Of a DNA stretch of 10,511 bases, positions 1-10,511 are shown piece after piece. Location of the stretch: UHGV virus genome UHGV-1625515. One strand, written 5' to 3'. Source of the DNA: a virus. The position numbers and the translations under genes were made by a program. How positions within the stretch are numbered: the stretch's first letter is position 1; each line of letters begins with the position of its first letter. Below the pieces are notes generated by a model. The model made no database searches, was not told where the DNA came from, and saw only the letters and a program-made list of their open reading frames with translations.

Positions 1-353
1 CGGTTACCCACCACAAGCACGCTGCCGCCACCTTTCAGGGATGAACGCTGCCCCTTTTTACGACGCCTGCGGCGCGAAAGGACAACCCGCGCATTACCCA
101 GCTTGATTACGGGCAAATCCCCCCGGTTAACTTTGATTCTGGCCTGCGGATTTTTGACCGTGGCCCTTTTCAGCCTGGCCCTTTCCTTTACCAGTTTCCG
201 GCGTACCTTTGTCTCACGGGCAACTTGTGACGCCGACTGCGATATCGCGGATGAAGCAACGCGGTTAATGGCCATTGCGGCGGCACCAGGCACCGCCGTT
301 TTGCTGATACGGCTGAGGTTTTCAACGGCCTGCTCAAGACCTTTTATGGCCAT
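1..353 (-). CDS. Z: Tail completion protein gpZ-like, partial: start codon at 353, 3' end runs past the window start
   Basis: Minus-strand translation from the ATG at 351-353 reads MAIKGLEQAVENLS..., matching the lambda gpZ N-terminus as recalled. An AAGGGGGA RBS lies just upstream and the start sits 12 nt after the FII stop, as in lambda. The frame stays open to position 1, which is why the ORF track omits it. Confidence 0.8.
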   Translation of the reverse strand, partial: MAIKGLEQAVENLSRISKTAVPGAAAMAINRVASSAISQSASQVARETKVRRKLVKERARLKRATVKNPQARIKVNRGDLPVIKLGNARVVLSRRRRRKKGQRSSLKGGGSVLVVGN

Positions 354-364
354 ACATCCCCCTT

Positions 365-718
365 TCAGCGGCGACGGTTAACGGCAGGCGGTACGCCCCG
401 TCCAAGCCAGAGATGACAACTTCCGCCATCATCCGGCGAAACCCGATCTACCCAGAAATTTTCCTCACCGATGGTCAGCGTGTCTCCACGCCGCAGCTGC
501 CGCACCTCATCAGTCCGGACAAACAGGGACGGGCTGGAGCCTTCAACGCGCACGCCCTGTCCGGCATAGCTGATATTTTCAGGGTCATCAAAAACACCAC
601 GTATCACCGCACCTGACTGCTCACCGGATGTCATGGTGGCTGACGTTCCCATGTACCCGCGTATCGTTTCATCGGCGCGGGCAATGGCAGCATCGAACAG
701 GTTATCGAAATCAGCCAC
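365..718 (-). CDS. FII: Head-tail joining protein gpFII (117 aa)
   Basis: The 117-aa ORF begins MADFDNLFDAAIARADETIRGYMG and ends ...LGRGVPPAVNRRR, matching recalled lambda FII in length and sequence. It sits in the lambda position between FI and Z. Confidence 0.92.
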   Translation of the reverse strand: MADFDNLFDAAIARADETIRGYMGTSATMTSGEQSGAVIRGVFDDPENISYAGQGVRVEGSSPSLFVRTDEVRQLRRGDTLTIGEENFWVDRVSPDDGGSCHLWLGRGVPPAVNRRR

Positions 719-729
719 AGCGCCTCCCG

Positions 730-1128
730 TTATTGCATTCTGGCCAGGCCGCGCTCTGTCATTTCGGCTGCCACACCGGCAGAGACACGAAACGCCGTTC
801 CCGGCAGCACAAATGCCACAGGTTCATCCCGCGTGGCGTGAAGTGCATCAGTATGCAGCTTCACCAGTGCCACGACCGTGACCAGTTCAGACGTATCCAG
901 AATCACGGTATCCGGCTGCGCTGATCCCACCTCATTTTCATGTCCGGTCAGCACATTTTCCCGGCTGAGAGGGGTGTCCTGACCGGCAGTTTCATCCGTG
1001 TCATCAAGCTCCTCTTCCAGCTCTGCCACACGGAGCGCCAGTTCTTCTTTCGTCCCCGTCAGGCTGACATCACGGTTCAGTTGTTCACCCAGCGAGCGGA
1101 GACGGGCAATCAGTTCATCTTTCGTCAT
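730..1128 (-). CDS. FI: DNA-packaging/head assembly protein gpFI (132 aa)
   Basis: The track ORF (145 aa) contains an internal start MTKDELIARLRSLGEQL that gives the 132-aa lambda FI length. A strong GGAGGAG RBS sits about 5 nt upstream of the ATG at 1128. Sequence matches recalled lambda FI. Confidence 0.9.
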   Translation of the reverse strand: MTKDELIARLRSLGEQLNRDVSLTGTKEELALRVAELEEELDDTDETAGQDTPLSRENVLTGHENEVGSAQPDTVILDTSELVTVVALVKLHTDALHATRDEPVAFVLPGTAFRVSAGVAAEMTERGLARMQ

Positions 1129-1140
1129 GGACTCCTCCAC

Positions 1141-1167
1141 AGAGAAACAATGGCCCCGAAGGGCCAT
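1141..1167 (-). terminator. Perfect 7-bp GC-rich hairpin with a UUCG tetraloop in the E-FI intergenic region, followed by a U-rich tract on the mRNA; likely partial terminator or mRNA-stabilising structure
   Basis: Plus strand ATGGCCC-CGAA-GGGCCAT (about 1150-1167). On the minus-strand mRNA this is a stem with a UUCG loop followed by UGUUUCUCU, then the FI RBS. Confidence 0.4.
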
Positions 1168-1169
1168 GA

Positions 1170-2195
1170 TTACGCCAGTTGTACGGACACGAACTCATCA
1201 GGGTCAGCCAGCAGCATCAGCGGTGCTGACTGAATCATGGTGAACTCACGCGCCGGATCGCCGGTGGTCACCCAGTTTTTCGGGTAACGGGCAGAGGCGT
1301 TAATGCCTTCGCGCTGTGCGTCCGCATCCTGAATGCAGCCATAGGTGCGCAGACCGCGTGCCTGAGTGTTCCCCAGCACCATCGTGTTGTCCGGCAGGAA
1401 GTTCTTTTTGACGTCGTTTTCCACGTACTGTCCGGAATACACGACGATGGCTACATCGCCATACATCCCCTTATAGGACACCGCTTTGCCCAGGTCTTTC
1501 ACCGCTGTCTCCAGCTCGGAATTAGAGCCACGACGGGTATCCAGCTTCTCCTTGACGGCTTTGAAGGAACGGAACAGCGCCCAGCCTTTCGGATCGAACA
1601 CGATGATATTCACCACACCGCTGGCGTTCAGCGCGTAGGCTTCGATATCGTCGGTCGGGTCATACGTGGACTTGTCACGCTTGCTCCACTCCGTGCCGCC
1701 GGACTGCGTGATGTTATTCTCCTCACTGCGGCCCATATCCACCTCAACCGGATCGAAGGCTTCACCGGTCATGGTGTATTTGCCCTTAAGCACGGCAGAA
1801 ACTGCCTGCATCTCTTCGACCTGAGCAATGGCCAGCTCTTCGTCACGCATGTTCTGCATGATGATGCGACGGCGGCGGTAAGCCGGGTCCGCCAGATTCT
1901 GCGGATCTTCATCCGGCAGGCGACGCAGGGTCATCTGCGGATTCACTTCATGCTTCGGCTTGACATATCCCGGCGTAAATTCAGAGGTGGAGCCGCCACG
2001 GGAACGGATAACCTCACCGGAAACAATCGGCGAAACGTACAGCGCCATGTTTACCAGTCCCGGAATTTGTGAGAGATAGACTTTCTCCGTGGTGAAGGGA
2101 TAGCTCTCACGGAAAAAGAGACGCAGAAACAGCGGATCAAACTTAAATTTCTGCTCATTTGCCGCCAGCAGCTGGGCGGTTGTGTACATCGACAT
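1170..2195 (-). CDS. E: Major capsid protein gpE (341 aa, HK97-fold lambda type)
   Basis: The track ORF (350 aa) contains the start MSMYTTAQLLAANEQKFKFDPLF..., which gives 341 aa as in lambda gpE. The C-terminus ...MLLADPDEFVSVQLA matches recalled lambda E. Confidence 0.95.
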   Translation of the reverse strand: MSMYTTAQLLAANEQKFKFDPLFLRLFFRESYPFTTEKVYLSQIPGLVNMALYVSPIVSGEVIRSRGGSTSEFTPGYVKPKHEVNPQMTLRRLPDEDPQNLADPAYRRRRIIMQNMRDEELAIAQVEEMQAVSAVLKGKYTMTGEAFDPVEVDMGRSEENNITQSGGTEWSKRDKSTYDPTDDIEAYALNASGVVNIIVFDPKGWALFRSFKAVKEKLDTRRGSNSELETAVKDLGKAVSYKGMYGDVAIVVYSGQYVENDVKKNFLPDNTMVLGNTQARGLRTYGCIQDADAQREGINASARYPKNWVTTGDPAREFTMIQSAPLMLLADPDEFVSVQLA

Positions 2196-2208
2196 AAAAA
2201 AATCCCGT

Positions 2209-2230
2209 AAAAAAAGCCGCACAGGCGGCC
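2209..2230 (-). terminator. Terminator-like hairpin (GCCGC-CUGU-GCGGC plus U7) in the D-E intergenic region
   Basis: Plus strand AAAAAAAGCCGCACAGGCGGC. On the minus-strand mRNA a 5-bp GC stem is followed by seven U, located between the D stop (2251) and the E start (2195). Confidence 0.4.
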
Positions 2231-2250
2231 TTTAGTGATGAAGGGTAAAG

Positions 2251-2583
2251 TTAAACGATGCTGATTGCCGTTCCGGCAAACGCGGTCCGTTTTTTCGTCT
2301 CGTCGCTGGCAGCCTCCGGCCAGAGCACATCCTCATAACGGAACGTGCCGGACTTGTAGAACGTCAGCGTGGTGCTGGTCTGGTCAGCAGCAACCGCAAG
2401 AATGCCAACGGCAGCACCGTCGGTGGTGCCATCCCACGCAACCAGCTTACGGCTGGAGGTGTCCAGCATCAGCGGGGTCATTGCAGGCGCTTTCGCACTC
2501 AATCCGCCGGGCGCGGTTGCGGTATGAGCCGGGTCACTGTTGCCCAGCGGCTGGTAATGGGTAAAGGTTTCTTTGCTCGTCAT
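2251..2583 (-). CDS. D: Head decoration protein gpD (110 aa)
   Basis: The track ORF (112 aa) contains [27 protein letters not shown]..., giving 110 aa. Near-identical to recalled lambda gpD and 9 nt downstream of the C stop, as in lambda. Confidence 0.93.
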
Positions 2584-2592
2584 AAACATCCC

Positions 2593-3198
2593 TTACACTG
2601 GTGTGTTCAGCAAATCGTTAACGGCATCAGATGCCGGGTTACCTGCAGCCAGCGGTGCCGGTGCCCCCTGCATCAGACGATCCAGCGCAGTGTCACTGCG
2701 CGCCTGTGCACTCTGTGGTGCTGCGGCCAGAATGCGGCGGGCCGTTTCCACGGTCATACCGGGGGTTTCTGCCAGCACGCGTGCCTGTTCTTCGCGTCCG
2801 TGAGCCTCCTCACAGTTGAGGATCCCCATAATGCGGCTGTTTTCTGCCGCAACCGCTGCGGTGATCTGCGCGTTCACGTCCGGCTGCGCCGCGCTGGCGT
2901 TTTCGCCCTCCGTCGCTGGCACCACGTCAGTAACGTCAGCCTGCGAAGCAGTGGCTGAAACAGTTGTTGATTGAGTCTCTTTGGTCATTCGCCCTCCTGA
3001 GAGACGGGATTTACGTGCATCCAGTGCATCACGCATGACGGTGATCGCATCGGTGCTGTTAACAAGTTCATCAGCCAGTCCGGCATCAATGGCCTCCTGA
3101 CCGCTGTACACTGCAGCCTCGGTATCCAGCACAGCCTGCACGGACAGGCCGGTATATGCCGACACCTTCTGCGCAAACATCTGGCGGGTTGCGTCCAT
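2593..3198 (-). CDS. Nu3: Scaffolding protein Nu3, produced by in-frame internal initiation within C (202 aa)
   Basis: An in-frame ATG at 3196-3198 gives MDATRQMFAQKVSAYTGLSVQ... sharing the C stop. It corresponds to the position of lambda Nu3 by collinearity. Established for lambda; inferred here. Confidence 0.55.
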   Translation of the reverse strand: MDATRQMFAQKVSAYTGLSVQAVLDTEAAVYSGQEAIDAGLADELVNSTDAITVMRDALDARKSRLSGGRMTKETQSTTVSATASQADVTDVVPATEGENASAAQPDVNAQITAAVAAENSRIMGILNCEEAHGREEQARVLAETPGMTVETARRILAAAPQSAQARSDTALDRLMQGAPAPLAAGNPASDAVNDLLNTPV

Positions 3199-3892
3199 CC
3201 GGGACTGCAGTGTCTCCCGGACGTCATCCGGAAGATGGCTGTAGGGGTTGCCATCCACCTTATGGCTGCCGCTGTAAATCAGAGTGATTTCCACACCCTG
3301 TTTCTCCAGCGCAGCACCGTAATTACTGTGAGCCATCATGACGCCGATGGAGCCTGTCCGGGCGGTCTGCGTGACCAGACGCCGGGAGGCGGCACTGGCA
3401 AGCAGCTGACCTGCACTGCAGTTCATGTCGTTGGCCAGCGCCCATACCGGTTTTATGTCACGCACACGGGCGATGATGTCAGCGCAGTCAAATGCCCCCG
3501 CCACCATCCCGCCGGGCGTGTCCATATCGAGCAGAATGCCGTCCACCATCGGATCGCTGGCAGCCTGTTGCAGACGGGCGATAATGCCGTTGTAACCGGT
3601 CATTCCCGAATACGGCTGCAGCGCCCGCGTCCGGCTGACCAGCGTACCGGACACCGGCAGCACGGCGATGCCGTTCATGACCTGATAACTGCGGGCCTGT
3701 CGTGGTCCGTCATCATCACCGGATAACGCCAGCGCCGCGGGTGCCTCTCCGGCAGTCAGGCTGTCGCCGGATACTGCATCCGTCAGGCGGCTGATCCCAA
3801 GCTGGCCTGCAAGCGCACAAAAGAAAACCCGCGCATAGGCGGGTTCAAGCATCAGCGGCTCATTAAAAGCCATGCTGGCAATATGCGGGAGA

Positions 3893-3912
<20 letters not shown>
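2593..3912 (-). CDS. C: Head maturation protease/scaffold gpC (439 aa, S49/ClpP-like serine peptidase family)
   Basis: The track ORF (484 aa) is over-extended into B. By my hand count the GTG at 3912 gives VTAALRNLPHIASMAFNEPLMLEPAYARVFF... and the 439-aa lambda gpC length. It overlaps the B 3' end by 20 nt, as in lambda. Confidence 0.9.
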
Positions 3913-7593
<3,681 letters not shown>

Positions 7594-7619
<26 letters not shown>

Positions 7620-8139
7620 TCAGCAACCCCGGTATCAGTTCATCCAGCGCGGCTGCTTTGTTCATGGCTTTGATGATATCCCGTTTCAGGAAATCAACAT
7701 GTCGGTTTTCCAGTTCCGGAAAACGCCGCTGCACCGACAGGGGGATCCCGTCGAGAATACTGGCAATTTCACCTGCGATCCGCGACAGCACGAAAGTACA
7801 GAATGCGGTTTCCACCACTTCAGCGGAGTCTCTGGCATTTTTCAGCTCCTGTGCGTCGGCCTGCGCACGCGTAAGTCGATGGCGTTCGTACTCAATAGTC
7901 CCTGGCTGGAGATCTGTCTCGCTAGCCTGCCGCAGTTCTTCAACTTCCCGGCGCAGCTTTTCGTTCTCAATTTCAGCATCCCTTTCGGCATACCATTTTA
8001 TGACGGCGGCAGAGTCATAAAGCACCTCATTACCCTTGCCACCGCCTCGCAGAACGGGCATTCCCTGTTCCTGCCAGTTCTGAATGGTACGGATACTCGC
8101 ACCGAAAATGTCAGCCAGCTGCTTTTTGTTGACTTCCAT
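7594..8139 (-). CDS. Nu1: Terminase small subunit gpNu1 (181 aa; cosB-binding wHTH)
   Basis: The 181-aa ORF MEVNKKQLADIFGASIRTIQNWQEQGMPVLRGGGKGNEVLYDSAAVIKWYAERDAEIENEKLRREVEEL... is essentially identical to recalled lambda Nu1. The start lies about 190 nt from cosN, as in lambda. Confidence 0.95.
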
Positions 8140-8164
8140 TGTTCATTCCACGGACAAAAACAGA

Positions 8165-8278
8165 GAAAGGAAACGACAGAGGCCAAAAAGCTCGCTTTCA
8201 GCACCTGTCGTTTCCTTTCTTTTCAGAGGGTATTTTAAATAAAAACATTAAGTTATGACGAAGAAGAACGGAAACGCC
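8165..8278. promoter_or_regulatory. cosB: cosB: terminase (gpNu1) binding elements R1 (about 8165-8179), R2 (about 8205-8219), R3 (about 8263-8278), with an AT-rich stretch between R3 and R2 consistent with the IHF site I1
   Basis: GAAAGGAAACGACAG (8165-8179) and CTGTCGTTTCCTTTC (8205-8219) form a perfect 15-bp inverted repeat. GAAGAACGGAAACGCC (8263-8278) shares the GGAAACG core. Sequences and spacing match the lambda cosB R elements as I recall them. Confidence 0.75.
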
Positions 8279-8316
8279 TTAAACCGGAAAATTTTCATAA
8301 ATAGCGAAAACCCGCG

Positions 8317-8328
8317 AGGTCGCCGCCC
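8317..8328. other. cosN: cosN: 12-nt cohesive-end site (reverse complement of lambda GGGCGGCGACCT), the terminase nicking site. cosQ is expected within about 10-40 bp on the Rz side (about 8335-8365)
   Basis: Plus strand AGGTCGCCGCCC is flanked on one side by CGCGGG..., the reverse complement of the recalled lambda left end, and on the other by CGTAACCTGTCGGATCGCC, the reverse complement of the recalled lambda right end ...GGCGATCCGACAGGTTACG. Confidence 0.8.
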
Positions 8329-8695
8329 CGTAACCTGTCGGATCGCCGGAAAGGACCCGAGAAAATGATAATGATTATCAGTTGCAACAAAATCCAGTTT
8401 CTTCCACCATCGCACCGGACGAGCGACCATGAGGGGACAACGCCACGCTCCGTTAACGCGGTAAACCCCGGTGTGTATCGTTTTTGATTATCCCCGCACA
8501 CTCGCGCAGAGGAGTCTCCCGGTAGGGCTGCGGTCTCTGTTCATGTGGGAATACGGCGACGATACTGCGCAAAGACATGCTTCAGAAATACATAAGTAAA
8601 CTAAAATATTGTATCTCTGTGGCTAATTACGTAAATTGGTGGCTTGGCCCCTTTAGCCACCGGCAAATCTTCAGCGGATTATCCTTGGCCGGTTT

Positions 8696-9169
8696 TTATC
8701 TGAGGCATTGCTCACGAATGTATAGCTGTGCCCCTTCCAGCTGCTTCTGCATTGTCATCAACCGTTCTCTGAGGATGAAATAATCCCGTTCAGCGGTGTC
8801 TGCCAGTCGGGGGCCGGTTGCATTATCCACGCGGGCGGTGCCGGTGGCTTCACGCACGGGACCTGGACAGGTGGCGTTGATACGCAGGCGCTTACGACCA
8901 GCGGCAACATCAGCACGCAGAGTTTCATTTTCAGCTCTCGCATCGGCTAATTCCCTCGAGTATTTTGCATCGAGCGCAGCAACATCGCGCTGGCGCACCT
9001 GCATATCAGTAATGGTGGCGTTTGCCAGCTCCAGCTCTCTGGCTTTTTTATCGCGCTGCGCTTTGTAGGTGATGGCGTTATCGCGGTAATGGTCTGTTGC
9101 CATCCACAGCGCTCCACAGGCCACCAGCAGAATAACGATAAACGCGGAAAGCATTCGGTTTATGTTCAC
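8696..9169 (-). CDS. Rz: Rz-type inner-membrane spanin (i-spanin). Start uncertain: GTG at 9169 or ATG at 9154
   Basis: The ORF has an N-terminal TM segment ([16 protein letters not shown]), then [15 protein letters not shown] and a coiled-coil-like periplasmic domain ending ...[22 protein letters not shown]. It is clearly homologous to lambda Rz but diverged (roughly two-thirds identical by eye). Confidence 0.85.
8758..8943 (-). CDS. Rz1: Rz1 outer-membrane lipoprotein spanin (o-spanin), fully embedded in the +1 frame of Rz
   Basis: The 61-aa [64 protein letters not shown] has a lipoprotein signal with a lipobox Cys and a proline-rich mature region. It closely resembles recalled lambda Rz1 (MLKLKMMLCVMMLPLVVVGC...). 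Confidence 0.8.
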
Positions 9170-9297
9170 CCCAGCAGCCCCGACGAAGACAACATCATCC
9201 AGGCCATGGAAAGAAAAAGAGCAACCAGCATTAGTGAAAATGAAATGCCGACAATTACACAGAGGATCTTCGCCAGCGTTATGAGTTTGTCTGACAT
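9166..9297 (-). CDS. Hypothetical 43-aa single-pass hydrophobic peptide ([43 protein letters not shown]), function unknown
   Basis: Internal ATG of track ORF 9166..9387, preceded by a strong GGGAGGA Shine-Dalgarno about 6 nt upstream. Its stop overlaps or abuts the Rz start (GTGA-type junction). About 30 consecutive hydrophobic residues. No family recognised by eye. Confidence 0.45.
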
Positions 9298-9311
9298 GCT
9301 TAATCCTCCCT

Positions 9312-9494
9312 TCACGATTTCAACGCAATGACCAGTTTTGCCAGCCCATACAGCATCGGGGACACAGCAACACCGACCGCCACCCACTTAATGGCAAAAG
9401 CCAGTGCTCTGCTGATGTCATCAGTTACAGGCGCTTTCAGTTCAAGGCCGTTTTTCATAGTCAACCTCAACAGAATTCGTTTATACTTCTCCAT
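9312..9494 (-). CDS. Hypothetical 60-aa protein with a basic N-terminus and hydrophobic/amphipathic C-terminal segment ([60 protein letters not shown]). An alternative GTG start at 9527 would give 71 aa
   Basis: ATG at 9494 with an AAGGGAG RBS upstream. Stop lies 2-3 nt before the RBS of the next small ORF, giving an operon-like arrangement. The ORF lies immediately downstream of a hairpin terminator. No recognisable family. Confidence 0.4.
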
Positions 9495-9527
9495 GTTCTC
9501 CCTTGCCTTATCCAAGGTCAGAAACAC

Positions 9528-9570
9528 AAAACCCCGCTTGCAGCCAACAAACGGGGTTTTTACTTTTATT
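9528..9570. terminator. Bidirectional Rho-independent terminator-like hairpin between the endolysin gene and the small-ORF pair
   Basis: Plus strand CCCCGCTTG-cagccaa-CAAACGGGG gives a 9-bp stem with one mismatch and a 7-nt loop. It is followed by TTTTTACTTTTATT on the plus strand and by TTTTGTGTTTC on the minus strand. Confidence 0.5.
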
Positions 9571-9650
9571 CACTTAGTTTTTGTCAGTTCGCAGGATTTC
9601 GTGTTATCCGTCCGTGTGAGCAAACCGCATTTTTCAGCAAAATATTCTGC

Positions 9651-10184
9651 TTATCTGTCAATTCCCCAGCACGCCAGCGCGCTCTCCTGGTCACGCCGCG
9701 ATACCTGCCCGTAACAGTTATTTGAGCGATTCCGACAGTCCCTGCCGCCGTCATATATCCATCGGCGGATTTCAGCACATGCACCTTTCCGGTCTCCGGC
9801 GTTCAGTTTCCGGTAAAACGTTGAGGTGAAGCATTTCGAAGGCCCGATGTTGTACGGACAGAATGACGCGATGCCCGCTTTCTGCGGTTCAGTCAGTGGC
9901 AATTTGATGTTTTTCTCCACCCATGCCAGCGCCTTATCACGTTCAATGGCATTAACCTGAGCGCATTTTTCCTTCGACAACTTCATGCCCGGGACGACAG
10001 GTTTGCCATCCACCATGATGGCACCACGGCAGATGGTCCAGATCCCCGCACCATCACGGTATGCCGTGGTGTGGTTACCTTCTTTTTCGTCAAGAAACTG
10101 GTCGAGGATTTCAGGCGCAGAAGCACCTGTGGCAATCATCGCCAGAACGGCTACCGATAAACCATAGTGGAGTTTCCTGCTCAT
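9651..10184 (-). CDS. R: SAR (signal-anchor-release) endolysin, T4-lysozyme-like muramidase (GH24), 177 aa
   Basis: N-terminal basic stretch plus a Gly/Ala/Ser-rich weakly hydrophobic segment (MSRKLHYGLSVAVLAMIATGASA), followed by the catalytic E-x8-D-x5-T motif (EGNHTTAYRDGAGIWT). GGGGAGAG RBS overlaps the holin stop, with the ATG 4 nt after it. Confidence 0.88.
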   Translation of the reverse strand: MSRKLHYGLSVAVLAMIATGASAPEILDQFLDEKEGNHTTAYRDGAGIWTICRGAIMVDGKPVVPGMKLSKEKCAQVNAIERDKALAWVEKNIKLPLTEPQKAGIASFCPYNIGPSKCFTSTFYRKLNAGDRKGACAEIRRWIYDGGRDCRNRSNNCYGQVSRRDQESALACWGIDR

Positions 10185-10188
10185 CAGC

Positions 10189-10404
10189 TTACTCTCCCCG
10201 CGCAGCTTTGCGCCGGTCTTCTTTAATCTTGAAATACAGATTCGTCAGGTATGTCAGGAACCCCAGACACAGGCTCCCCAAAACCCCGATAGCAGCCCAC
10301 TGTGACGGAGTAACCTGATCCAACCACTGTAGAAACCAGTAACCCGCACTGCCCGCAGAAGTACCATAGGCTATGCCCGTTGATATTTTTTCCATCTGAT
10401 ACAT
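10189..10404 (-). CDS. S: Phage-21-type class II holin (pinholin), 71 aa, with dual-start motif (Met1 and Met4)
   Basis: [71 protein letters not shown] is near-identical to recalled phage 21 S21 (71 and 68 aa forms). It has two TMDs, the first Gly/Ala/Ser-rich and SAR-like, and a charged C-terminus. Confidence 0.9.
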
Positions 10405-10435
10405 ATCCCCGCCCCGACAGACCTGTGCTACCGGA

Positions 10436-10469
10436 AATAAAAAAGGCCATCAGTGTTTTACTGATGGCC
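10436..10469 (-). terminator. tR'-like intrinsic terminator immediately upstream of the holin: the expected target of Q-mediated antitermination of the late transcript
   Basis: Minus strand GGCCATCAG-UAAAACA-CUGAUGGCC forms a perfect 9-bp stem followed by UUUUUUAUUU, about 35 nt upstream of the holin start. Confidence 0.6.
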
Positions 10470-10511
10470 CTGCCCCGCCGTTACAGCATTGTGCCCGGTT
10501 CGGGTTGTGTG

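Follow-up and report, generated by a model that had tools for sequence, protein, structure and literature searches.

The window analyzed here, the whole 10,511-nucleotide stretch of the virus genome UHGV-1625515, is very probably a functional segment of the late operon of a natural Escherichia lambdoid phage or prophage, in which two interchangeable modules meet at the cohesive-end site, cos: a lambda-type cos, terminase and head module and a lysis cassette of another lineage. The late region is real, intact and functional-looking, and what it records is an unremarkable lambdoid modular exchange, already known in kind; the swap that sets a lambda-type cos and head beside a non-lambda lysis cassette is common and well known among E. 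coli prophages, and no new kind of system is involved. An earlier note on this DNA had described lambda head genes joined to a phage-21-type lysis cassette without the lambda bor region, and had named as findings that would speak against it a lambda-like lysis cassette, substantial indels in the head module or the presence of bor-region sequence. In the event the lysis cassette is non-lambda, the head module is without substantial indels, and a search of the window found neither bor nor S and R genes of the lambda kind.

Module identities, gene content, breakpoint positions and the commonness of the architecture are established by the comparisons given below; the reported matches have E-values of ~0, and none is therefore a chance resemblance. 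The conventional orientation of the phage corresponds to the minus strand of the window, and w denotes a window coordinate. For lambda, the comparison sequence was PV340536 (locus L001), aligned by local blastn, and the lambda coordinates cited are accurate to +/- 1.

The window is a case of textbook lambdoid modular mosaicism, and the value of the analysis lies mainly in its correct annotation. The common state of E. coli prophages is a lambda-type head together with a pinholin and a GH24 endolysin, and it is lambda's own S/R cassette that is unusual; this cassette and the 2-kb bor region are one variant among many. As phenotype we would predict lambda packaging specificity, lysis by a pinholin and a signal-arrest-release (SAR) endolysin, and no Bor serum-resistance lipoprotein. 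The breakpoint between cosQ and cosN is the sole mildly useful lead. The features of the window are collected in Table 1.

Table 1. Features of the window, in window coordinates (a point in the strand column marks entries given without strand)
Feature	Position	Strand	Basis or remark
Tail gene Z, 5' part, running off the window	1-353	-	Collinear with lambda Z (start L001 13441), inside the 98.8% high-scoring pair
Head/packaging module, Nu1 to FII	365-8139	-	Lambda gene lengths, near-identical proteins
FII	365-718	-	354 nt
FI	730-1128	-	399 nt
E	1170-2195	-	1026 nt
D	2251-2583	-	333 nt
C/Nu3	2593-3912	-	1320 nt
B	3893-5494	-	1602 nt
W	5491-5697	-	207 nt
A	5694-7619	-	1926 nt
Nu1	7594-8139	-	546 nt
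cosB region (lambda R3-I1-R2-R1 interval) and Nu1 leader	8140-8316	-	100% lambda identity from cosN to the Nu1 ATG
cosN 12-nt cohesive-end sequence, reverse complement GGGCGGCGACCT	8317-8328	-	Read from the sequence; lambda-identical
Gene-free spacer	8329-8695	.	Between the Rz stop and cosN
Best-supported crossover interval, lysis-side (JE86/PhiR12_4 type) versus lambda-type lineage	8339-8360	.	Contains cosQ; single-nucleotide polymorphism table
cosQ, GGGTCCT, 7 bp	8352-8358	.	~30 bp upstream of the nick
Limit of lambda homology (w8380/8381, ~lambda bp 48,452), with a short linker to the element	8381-8391	.	Boundary of the blastn high-scoring pair; alignment
Conserved ~180-bp non-coding-looking element	8392-8571	-	Found in many E. 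coli lambdoids between Rz or bor and the packaging genes
AT-rich spacer, 124 bp, in the position of bor	8572-8695	-	Common only to PhiR12-type and JE86-type prophages
Rz i-spanin, 157 residues from GTG; alternative ATG at w9154	8696-9169	-	PF03245, 168.9 bits
Rz1 o-spanin, embedded in the Rz +1 frame, lipobox LVVSAC	8758-8943	-	PF06085, 75.6 bits
orfB, 43 residues, single-pass membrane protein	9166-9297	-	phrog_4906 (unknown function); annotated in PhiR12_4 and JE86
orfA, 60 residues, C-terminal hydrophobic segment	9312-9494	-	phrog_1115 (unknown function)
Terminator-like hairpin between R and orfA	9528-9560	-	
R endolysin, 177 residues, GH24 T4-type lysozyme, N-terminal SAR-like segment	9651-10184	-	PF00959
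S, 71 residues, class II (pinholin-type) holin of the P21 holin S family	10189-10404	-	PF04971, full length
Terminator-like hairpin just upstream of S, 3' side of a DUF826 gene mostly beyond the window	10443-10471	-	Context from related loci

The lambda-type cos and head module

All nine genes from Nu1 to FII have exactly the lengths of their lambda counterparts, and their overlaps and spacings are also those of lambda, as the earlier note had stated; the encoded proteins, which it had called near-identical, are 98.2-100% identical to lambda's (98.9% for Nu1 and 99.2% for gpA). At the DNA level, w1-8380 is 98.77% identical to lambda with one 1-nt indel. In a three-way alignment the identity to lambda in 250-bp windows runs from 95.6% to 100% with no further indel, and the nine head genes carry none. 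The pairwise alignment to lambda that the note had proposed as a check puts the end of lambda homology at w8380/8381.

The cos site had also been read as lambda-type, and cosQ, cosN and cosB are indeed all lambda's. The sequences flanking cosN are identical to the lambda cosN half-sites, the right end of the chromosome (...GACAGGTTACG) has w8329 as its last base, and w8161-8223 carries an inverted repeat that belongs to the lambda cosB sequence itself. The heptamer GGGTCCT is cosQ. The Nu1 ATG stands at base 190 from the cohesive end in both PV340536 and the window; for lambda, base 191 had been expected, hence the margin of +/- 1 given above. Definitions of the cos subsites were taken from work of the Feiss laboratory, according to which lambda and phage 21 have cosQ and cosN in common and differ in cosB and in the specificity of TerS (PMC4669245). 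Because cosB is lambda-identical and Nu1 differs from lambda's at just two residues, both outside the N-terminal domain, the packaging specificity should be that of lambda rather than that of phage 21, and the identity of Nu1 and gpA suggests that lambda terminase would cleave the site and package the DNA.

The lysis cassette and its relatives

The holin had been described as an S21-like pinholin and the endolysin as a T4-lysozyme-type enzyme in place of lambda's transglycosylase R, and the family assignments bear out both. S scores 119.7 bits (gathering cutoff 26) against PF04971, "Bacteriophage P21 holin S," with residues 5-67 covered, R matches PF00959 at 88 bits, and with identities of ~20% and 18.5%, respectively, the two are unrelated to lambda S and R. 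S has two transmembrane segments, the first rich in Gly, Ala and Ser, and a dual start (Met1/Met4), and it is 83% identical to EssD of DLP12 and 100% identical to S of PhiR12_4. The N-terminal extension before Met4 (w10393-10404) reads Met-Tyr-Gln, compared with Met-Lys-Ser in EssD; the EssD lysine is likewise missing from the holins of the phage Stx1_8100 (MYQ) and of E. coli 2013C-4991 (MNQ). In R, the triad E35/D44/T50 (Glu-8 residues-Asp-5 residues-Thr) aligns with the catalytic residues of R21 in the 3HDE alignment, and the nearest solved structures are R21 (3HDE/3HDF) and RrrD (4ZPU), with an E-value of only ~1e-19. R is 30.6% identical to RrrD (global alignment), 89% identical to R of a 933W-like Shiga toxin 1 (Stx1)-converting phage and 99.4% identical to R of PhiR12_4; its residues 5-23 (LHYGLSVAVLAMIATGASA) are 53% Gly, Ala, Ser or Thr, with a Kyte-Doolittle 19-residue maximum of 1.68.

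Rz and Rz1 are related to those of lambda and diverged, as had been stated (68.4% and 72.1% identity), and are 85% and 93% identical to the alleles of the 933W-like Stx phage; the only lysis-side DNA that aligns to lambda is in Rz (w8705-9091, 82.7%). The pair has the make-up of a two-component embedded spanin, with an N-terminal transmembrane segment in the i-spanin and an embedded o-spanin lipoprotein. The exact Rz product, as delimited here, has no record in the protein collection searched. Between R and Rz lie two small open reading frames (ORFs), orfA and orfB, both omitted from the earlier note. The description "phage-21-type" thus fits the cassette in its functional class and in the family of its holin, and fails for the endolysin allele: although S is 83% identical to its DLP12 counterpart, R is only 30.6% and Rz 67.7% identical, and the cassette is not an allele of the phage 21/DLP12 one. 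By sequence it is a Stx-phage/PhiR12 variant.

A Q-dependent late transcript would enter at w10511 and run leftward on the minus strand through S, R, the two small membrane ORFs, Rz/Rz1, the 367-bp gene-free spacer, cos and the lambda-type terminase and head genes. On the model of phage 21, R would be exported independently of the holin and tethered by its SAR-like segment; the pinholin would then depolarize the inner membrane, depolarization would free and activate the tethered endolysin, and the spanin would break the outer membrane. Its family membership, together with its pairing with an endolysin bearing an N-terminal export segment, suggests that S makes small (~2 nm) depolarizing holes that would be impassable to the endolysin; published work assigns the holins of 933W and H-19B to the P21 holin S family and associates such pinholins with SAR endolysins (PMC10462455).

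The design predicted here, of pinholin, SAR-type GH24 endolysin and embedded two-component spanin, is that found in phage 21 and DLP12 (S21/EssD, R21/RrrD, Rz, Rz1) and in mEp332, where a DLP12/21-type S-RrrD-Rz cassette is already joined to lambda-type Nu1 and head genes. DLP12 and mEp332 keep a bor or bor-like gene after Rz, and neither has orfA or orfB. Lambda shares with the window cosQ, cosN, cosB and the genes Nu1 to FII (98.8%, equal lengths) and has homologous Rz/Rz1 genes, but differs in its class I holin (S105/S107), in its transglycosylase R and in the ~2.07 kb between Rz and cos with bor, ybcV-like and ybcW-like ORFs. The architecture of the window is that of Stx1a phages such as Stx1_8100 (LC645431) and of a prophage of E. 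coli 2013C-4991 (NZ_CP027355), both of which have a P21-family holin, a 177-residue GH24 lysozyme, Rz/Rz1, the 180-bp element discussed below, a lambda-type cos, lambda-length heads and no bor. These two match w1-8571 at 98%, so that the module from head genes to spacer is contiguous in them too, with R 83-88% and Rz 88% identical to the window's, and the holin DNA of Stx1_8100 is only 73% identical. They lack orfA and the spacer at w8572-8695, and because this 124-bp spacer is absent their Rz-to-cosN distance is ~250-270 bp.

In PhiR12_4 and PhiR5_2 (PV340553, PV340546) and in the E. coli JE86-ST05 prophage, the lysis cassette with orfA/orfB, the spacer, the element and cosQ are 97-100% identical to those of the window and Rz lies 367 bp from cosN, as it does here, but the head and terminase genes are only 66-78% identical. 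For PhiR12_4, w8284-10511 is matched at 97.1% and the terminase and head genes at only 66-69%. JE86-ST05 differs in its cosB and its holin and has an insertion separating S from R. Its decoration protein matches chains 1TD3/1TD4, which are phage 21 SHP, and its heads are therefore of the phage 21 type. A literature search on the PhiR/mEp332 phage set found no paper. The same lysis-side sequence adjoins three different head modules: that of PhiR12_4, only 66-69% identical to the window's, that of JE86, of the phage 21 type, and one with a P22-type portal in contigs carrying the exact R.

Among complete E. coli genomes, 1940 contain a place covering at least 80% of the window. The exact portal protein of the window occurs in 337 index blocks of the protein-to-contig collection and the exact R protein in 263. 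At all eight of the places displayed for the portal protein, a PF04971 holin precedes the lambda-length head set, accompanied in six of the eight by a PF00959 lysozyme. What these eight carry as cargo from Rz to Nu1 is highly variable (Bor, DUF1398, DUF3950, pRha, T5orf172, cold-shock genes, GnsAB). The exact R protein adjoins heads with a P22-type portal at the places displayed for it, and in none of the places displayed do the exact R and the exact portal occur together.

These relatives also bear on whether the window could be a laboratory lambda hybrid or a cloning-vector derivative, for example one of the lambda-21 hybrids with near-cos crossovers that are classical constructs (PMC4669245). 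We regard this as extremely improbable. The head module differs from lambda at ~1.2% of positions, spread over its whole length, it is equally close to natural prophages and not 100% identical to lambda PaPa, and the lysis cassette is of the Stx-phage/PhiR12 type and does not carry the phage 21 R allele.

Position and origin of the join

The earlier note had placed a recombination junction between ~8330 and ~8700, and the end of lambda homology at w8380/8381 falls inside this interval. Its picture of a single junction did not survive the comparison with the relatives, which resolves several nested breakpoints: w8338/8339, 8380/8381, 8571/8572, ~8700, ~9175-9496 (presence versus absence of orfA/orfB) and ~10160-10180 (holin allele). 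The region is a nested mosaic and not a single two-parent join. In a site-by-site table, no difference separates the window from the JE86-ST05 prophage between w8720 and w8339, and the window then switches to the lambda/Stx1_8100 type at w8335-8338 (GACAGG versus GGGCCG); the final positions unlike lambda are w8345 and w8358-8361. By sequence, the best-supported location of the crossover between the lysis arm and the head arm is ~w8339-8360, between cosQ and cosN, with w8380/8381 as the outer limit.

Given that Rz (82.7% in DNA) and the ~180-bp element (~76%) are recognizably homologous to lambda, it might be argued that no recombination took place and that a descendant of lambda lost the bor region while its lysis genes diverged in place. 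This account is extremely improbable and is already refuted by the abrupt step in identity, from 98.8% to none at w8380/8381, and by the membership of S (~20%) and R (18.5%) in protein families other than lambda's; moreover, w8284-10511 is 97% identical to PhiR12_4, whose heads are only 66-69% identical.

In the modular exchange that we favor instead, the lysis-side and lambda-type lineages meet in the ~20-50 bp between cosQ and cosN, and two routes may be considered. The first is a Red- or RecA-mediated exchange in the cosQ-cosN-I2 homology; this block is near-identical among lambda-like cos phages and would thus provide the homology needed, and temperate phages are known to recombine via short or diverged homologies (PMC2327257, PMC3945230). 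In the second, terminase would initiate at the cosB of one prophage and terminate at the cosQ/cosN of an adjacent one, and the product would combine the first prophage's left arm with the second one's right arm, with the junction at cosN once cyclized. Packaging from cos to cos across two prophages has been demonstrated experimentally with dilysogens (PMC4669245).

Several observations weigh against this account or parts of it. The donor lineage could be polymorphic in the 4 nt that differ at w8335-8338, in which case the crossover would be placed only within ~w8339-8380; because of this, and with relatives in place of the true parents, the two routes are inseparable on these data. Neither a 64-mer (IMG/VR) nor a 48-mer (JGI metagenomes) spanning w8300-8365 had an exact match, so that this particular recombinant has been seen once in the collections searched, and among complete E. 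coli genomes the best match to w8300-8720 is 99.0%, of the JE86 type. For the lysis mechanism, the MYQ start of the holin lacks the lysine at position 2 of EssD, and its antiholin behavior may differ; the antiholin character of S21-71 is due to an extra N-terminal positive charge. The A-S-A/P at residues 21-24 of R could also fit cleavage by signal peptidase.

The missing 48-64-mers would also be expected of an assembly chimera, in which the assembler fused two different prophages from a single genome, at the conserved cos or at the 180-bp repeat, into a junction that no real molecule has. Places similar to the window number 3 per E. coli genome at the median and 16 at most, and the two "parents" share just ~100-290 bp (w8284-8571). 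We nevertheless judge a chimera to be very unlikely, as the same overall architecture is present in the closed genome of E. coli 2013C-4991 and in sequenced phages (Stx1a phages, mEp332), the sequence to either side is unbroken, with its reading frames open and cos complete, and the switch sits where natural module exchange is expected.

That the breakpoint is so near the cosN nick, at ~10-50 bp, could reflect an exchange of head and lysis arms among lambda-like cos phages that in nature takes place mostly at cos itself, either through terminase packaging between the cos sites of neighboring or tandem heterologous prophages or through recombination from the cos double-strand end. Coupled with this is the idea that the ~180-bp non-coding element, which precedes three unrelated packaging modules and occurs in ~85% of complete E. 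coli genomes, is under selection as a linker or as part of the late transcript and would not be a neutral relic. We consider this combined proposal unlikely.

The Rz-to-cos interval and smaller features

The interval between Rz and cos is a variable cargo slot, of which the window holds the short bor-less form. The distance from Rz to cosN, noted before as about 370 bp, is 367 bp, compared with 2075 bp in lambda; it is 2076 bp in DLP12, and the relatives examined span 252 to 2076 bp. The claim that the lambda accessory region is absent stood for bor and the ybcV-like and ybcW-like ORFs, as tblastn gave no match in the window to Bor of lambda, to its YbcV-like and YbcW-like proteins or to two small ORFs (best E = 2.1), but a ~180-bp non-coding lambda-homologous segment has been kept. 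The homologue of this element in lambda lies at ~bp 46,868-47,045, between bor and the ybcV-like ORF, and in both lambda and DLP12 it starts 116 bp upstream of the bor start codon. In the first comparison, which took in five loci from phages and prophages, its identity is 74-94%, and to lambda it is ~76% (copies at L001 3831-~4010, L004 2501-2681, L007 11505-11683, L015 3510-~3690 and L026 4826-5000).

Sequence related to the element occurs in 440 phage records and in 4573 of 5426 complete E. coli genomes, and among the species representatives of GTDB its core motif is found in Escherichia only. The boundary at w8571 is sharp every time, ahead of three unrelated packaging modules: one with the lambda-type cos, one with a 933W-type terminase, where the element is annotated as an 81-residue ORF, and one with a P22-type portal, where the element starts 10 bp past the Rz stop. 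We treat the element as an inherited piece of the Rz-bor-cos interval, and it may serve as recombination homology. The 124-bp stretch at w8572-8695 is absent from lambda, Stx1_8100 and L007.

Other roles for the element were considered and set aside. Coding capacity was rejected on the basis of homologue indels of 1, 2, 3 and 12 nt that disrupt all frames; Pfam and NCBIfam returned nothing for the ORFs at w8295-8501 and w8248-8430 (both crossing cosN), for w8577-8783 or for the 81-residue "ORF B85," as the element is annotated in the 933W-like phage. A structured RNA was rejected as well for lack of evidence, with single-sequence folds no better than shuffles (z = +0.8, +1.2); there was no Rfam match to the element, and RNAalifold on seven homologues gave a covariation term of -0.08 and one compensatory pair only. 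Within the element is an 11-bp inverted repeat (TATTCCCGCAT ... GTGCGGGGATA), which in lambda and DLP12 shows a single compensatory change. Nor is the element exceptionally conserved, doing no better than the genes beside it, at 75% compared with 86% for R against the 933W-like phage. A function as the bor promoter is unlikely, since the element persists in bor-less phages; in lambda, a PhoP-box-like TGTTTAGGGTTTGTTTA and a promoter-like site fall within the 116 bp that separate bor from the element. Some 50-70 bp upstream of the start codon of lambda bor (L001 3765-3785, minus strand) stands a perfect direct repeat, TGTTTA-GGGTT-TGTTTA. It resembles the PhoP box, which fits the place of borD in the Mg2+/PhoP stimulon and its regulation by PhoP, and it is missing from the bor-less window.

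The small ORFs orfA and orfB have no Pfam or NCBIfam match. The differences among the orfA homologues compared are all synonymous; the stop of orfB overlaps the Rz start, and the Kyte-Doolittle 19-residue maximum of its product is 2.89. A role in the timing of lysis or as a moron is possible for the two. Sequence resembling orfB also stands 5' of Rz in a 933W-like phage, and in other Stx phages the slot of orfA/orfB is occupied by an antirepressor gene. The two terminator-like hairpins inside the late operon are presumably read through by Q-modified RNA polymerase. The one upstream of S was considered as a PasA, PasC, AgvB or AsxR small RNA and rejected, with PasA of enteropathogenic E. coli E2348/69 unmatched and no Rfam match. 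Across w8100-10511, Rfam at E <= 1 gave sub-threshold noise only: a rimP leader at 27.5 bits (gathering score 47) and two microRNA models on the cosB inverted repeat.

Recombination hotspots of the Chi type were dismissed, with one GCTGGTGG only (w9121-9128), which is at chance level (at least one in 84 of 200 shuffles); the octamer is on the phage-sense (minus) strand, in Rz, ~800 bp from the right cohesive end. Finally, two E. coli assemblies with the exact portal protein carry an island of ~7 kb between lambda-type D and E (L034 13708-20843 and L035 13708-20929), with an integrase, AlpA, a D5-type primase and a single-stranded DNA-binding protein, which resembles a phage-inducible chromosomal island or satellite.

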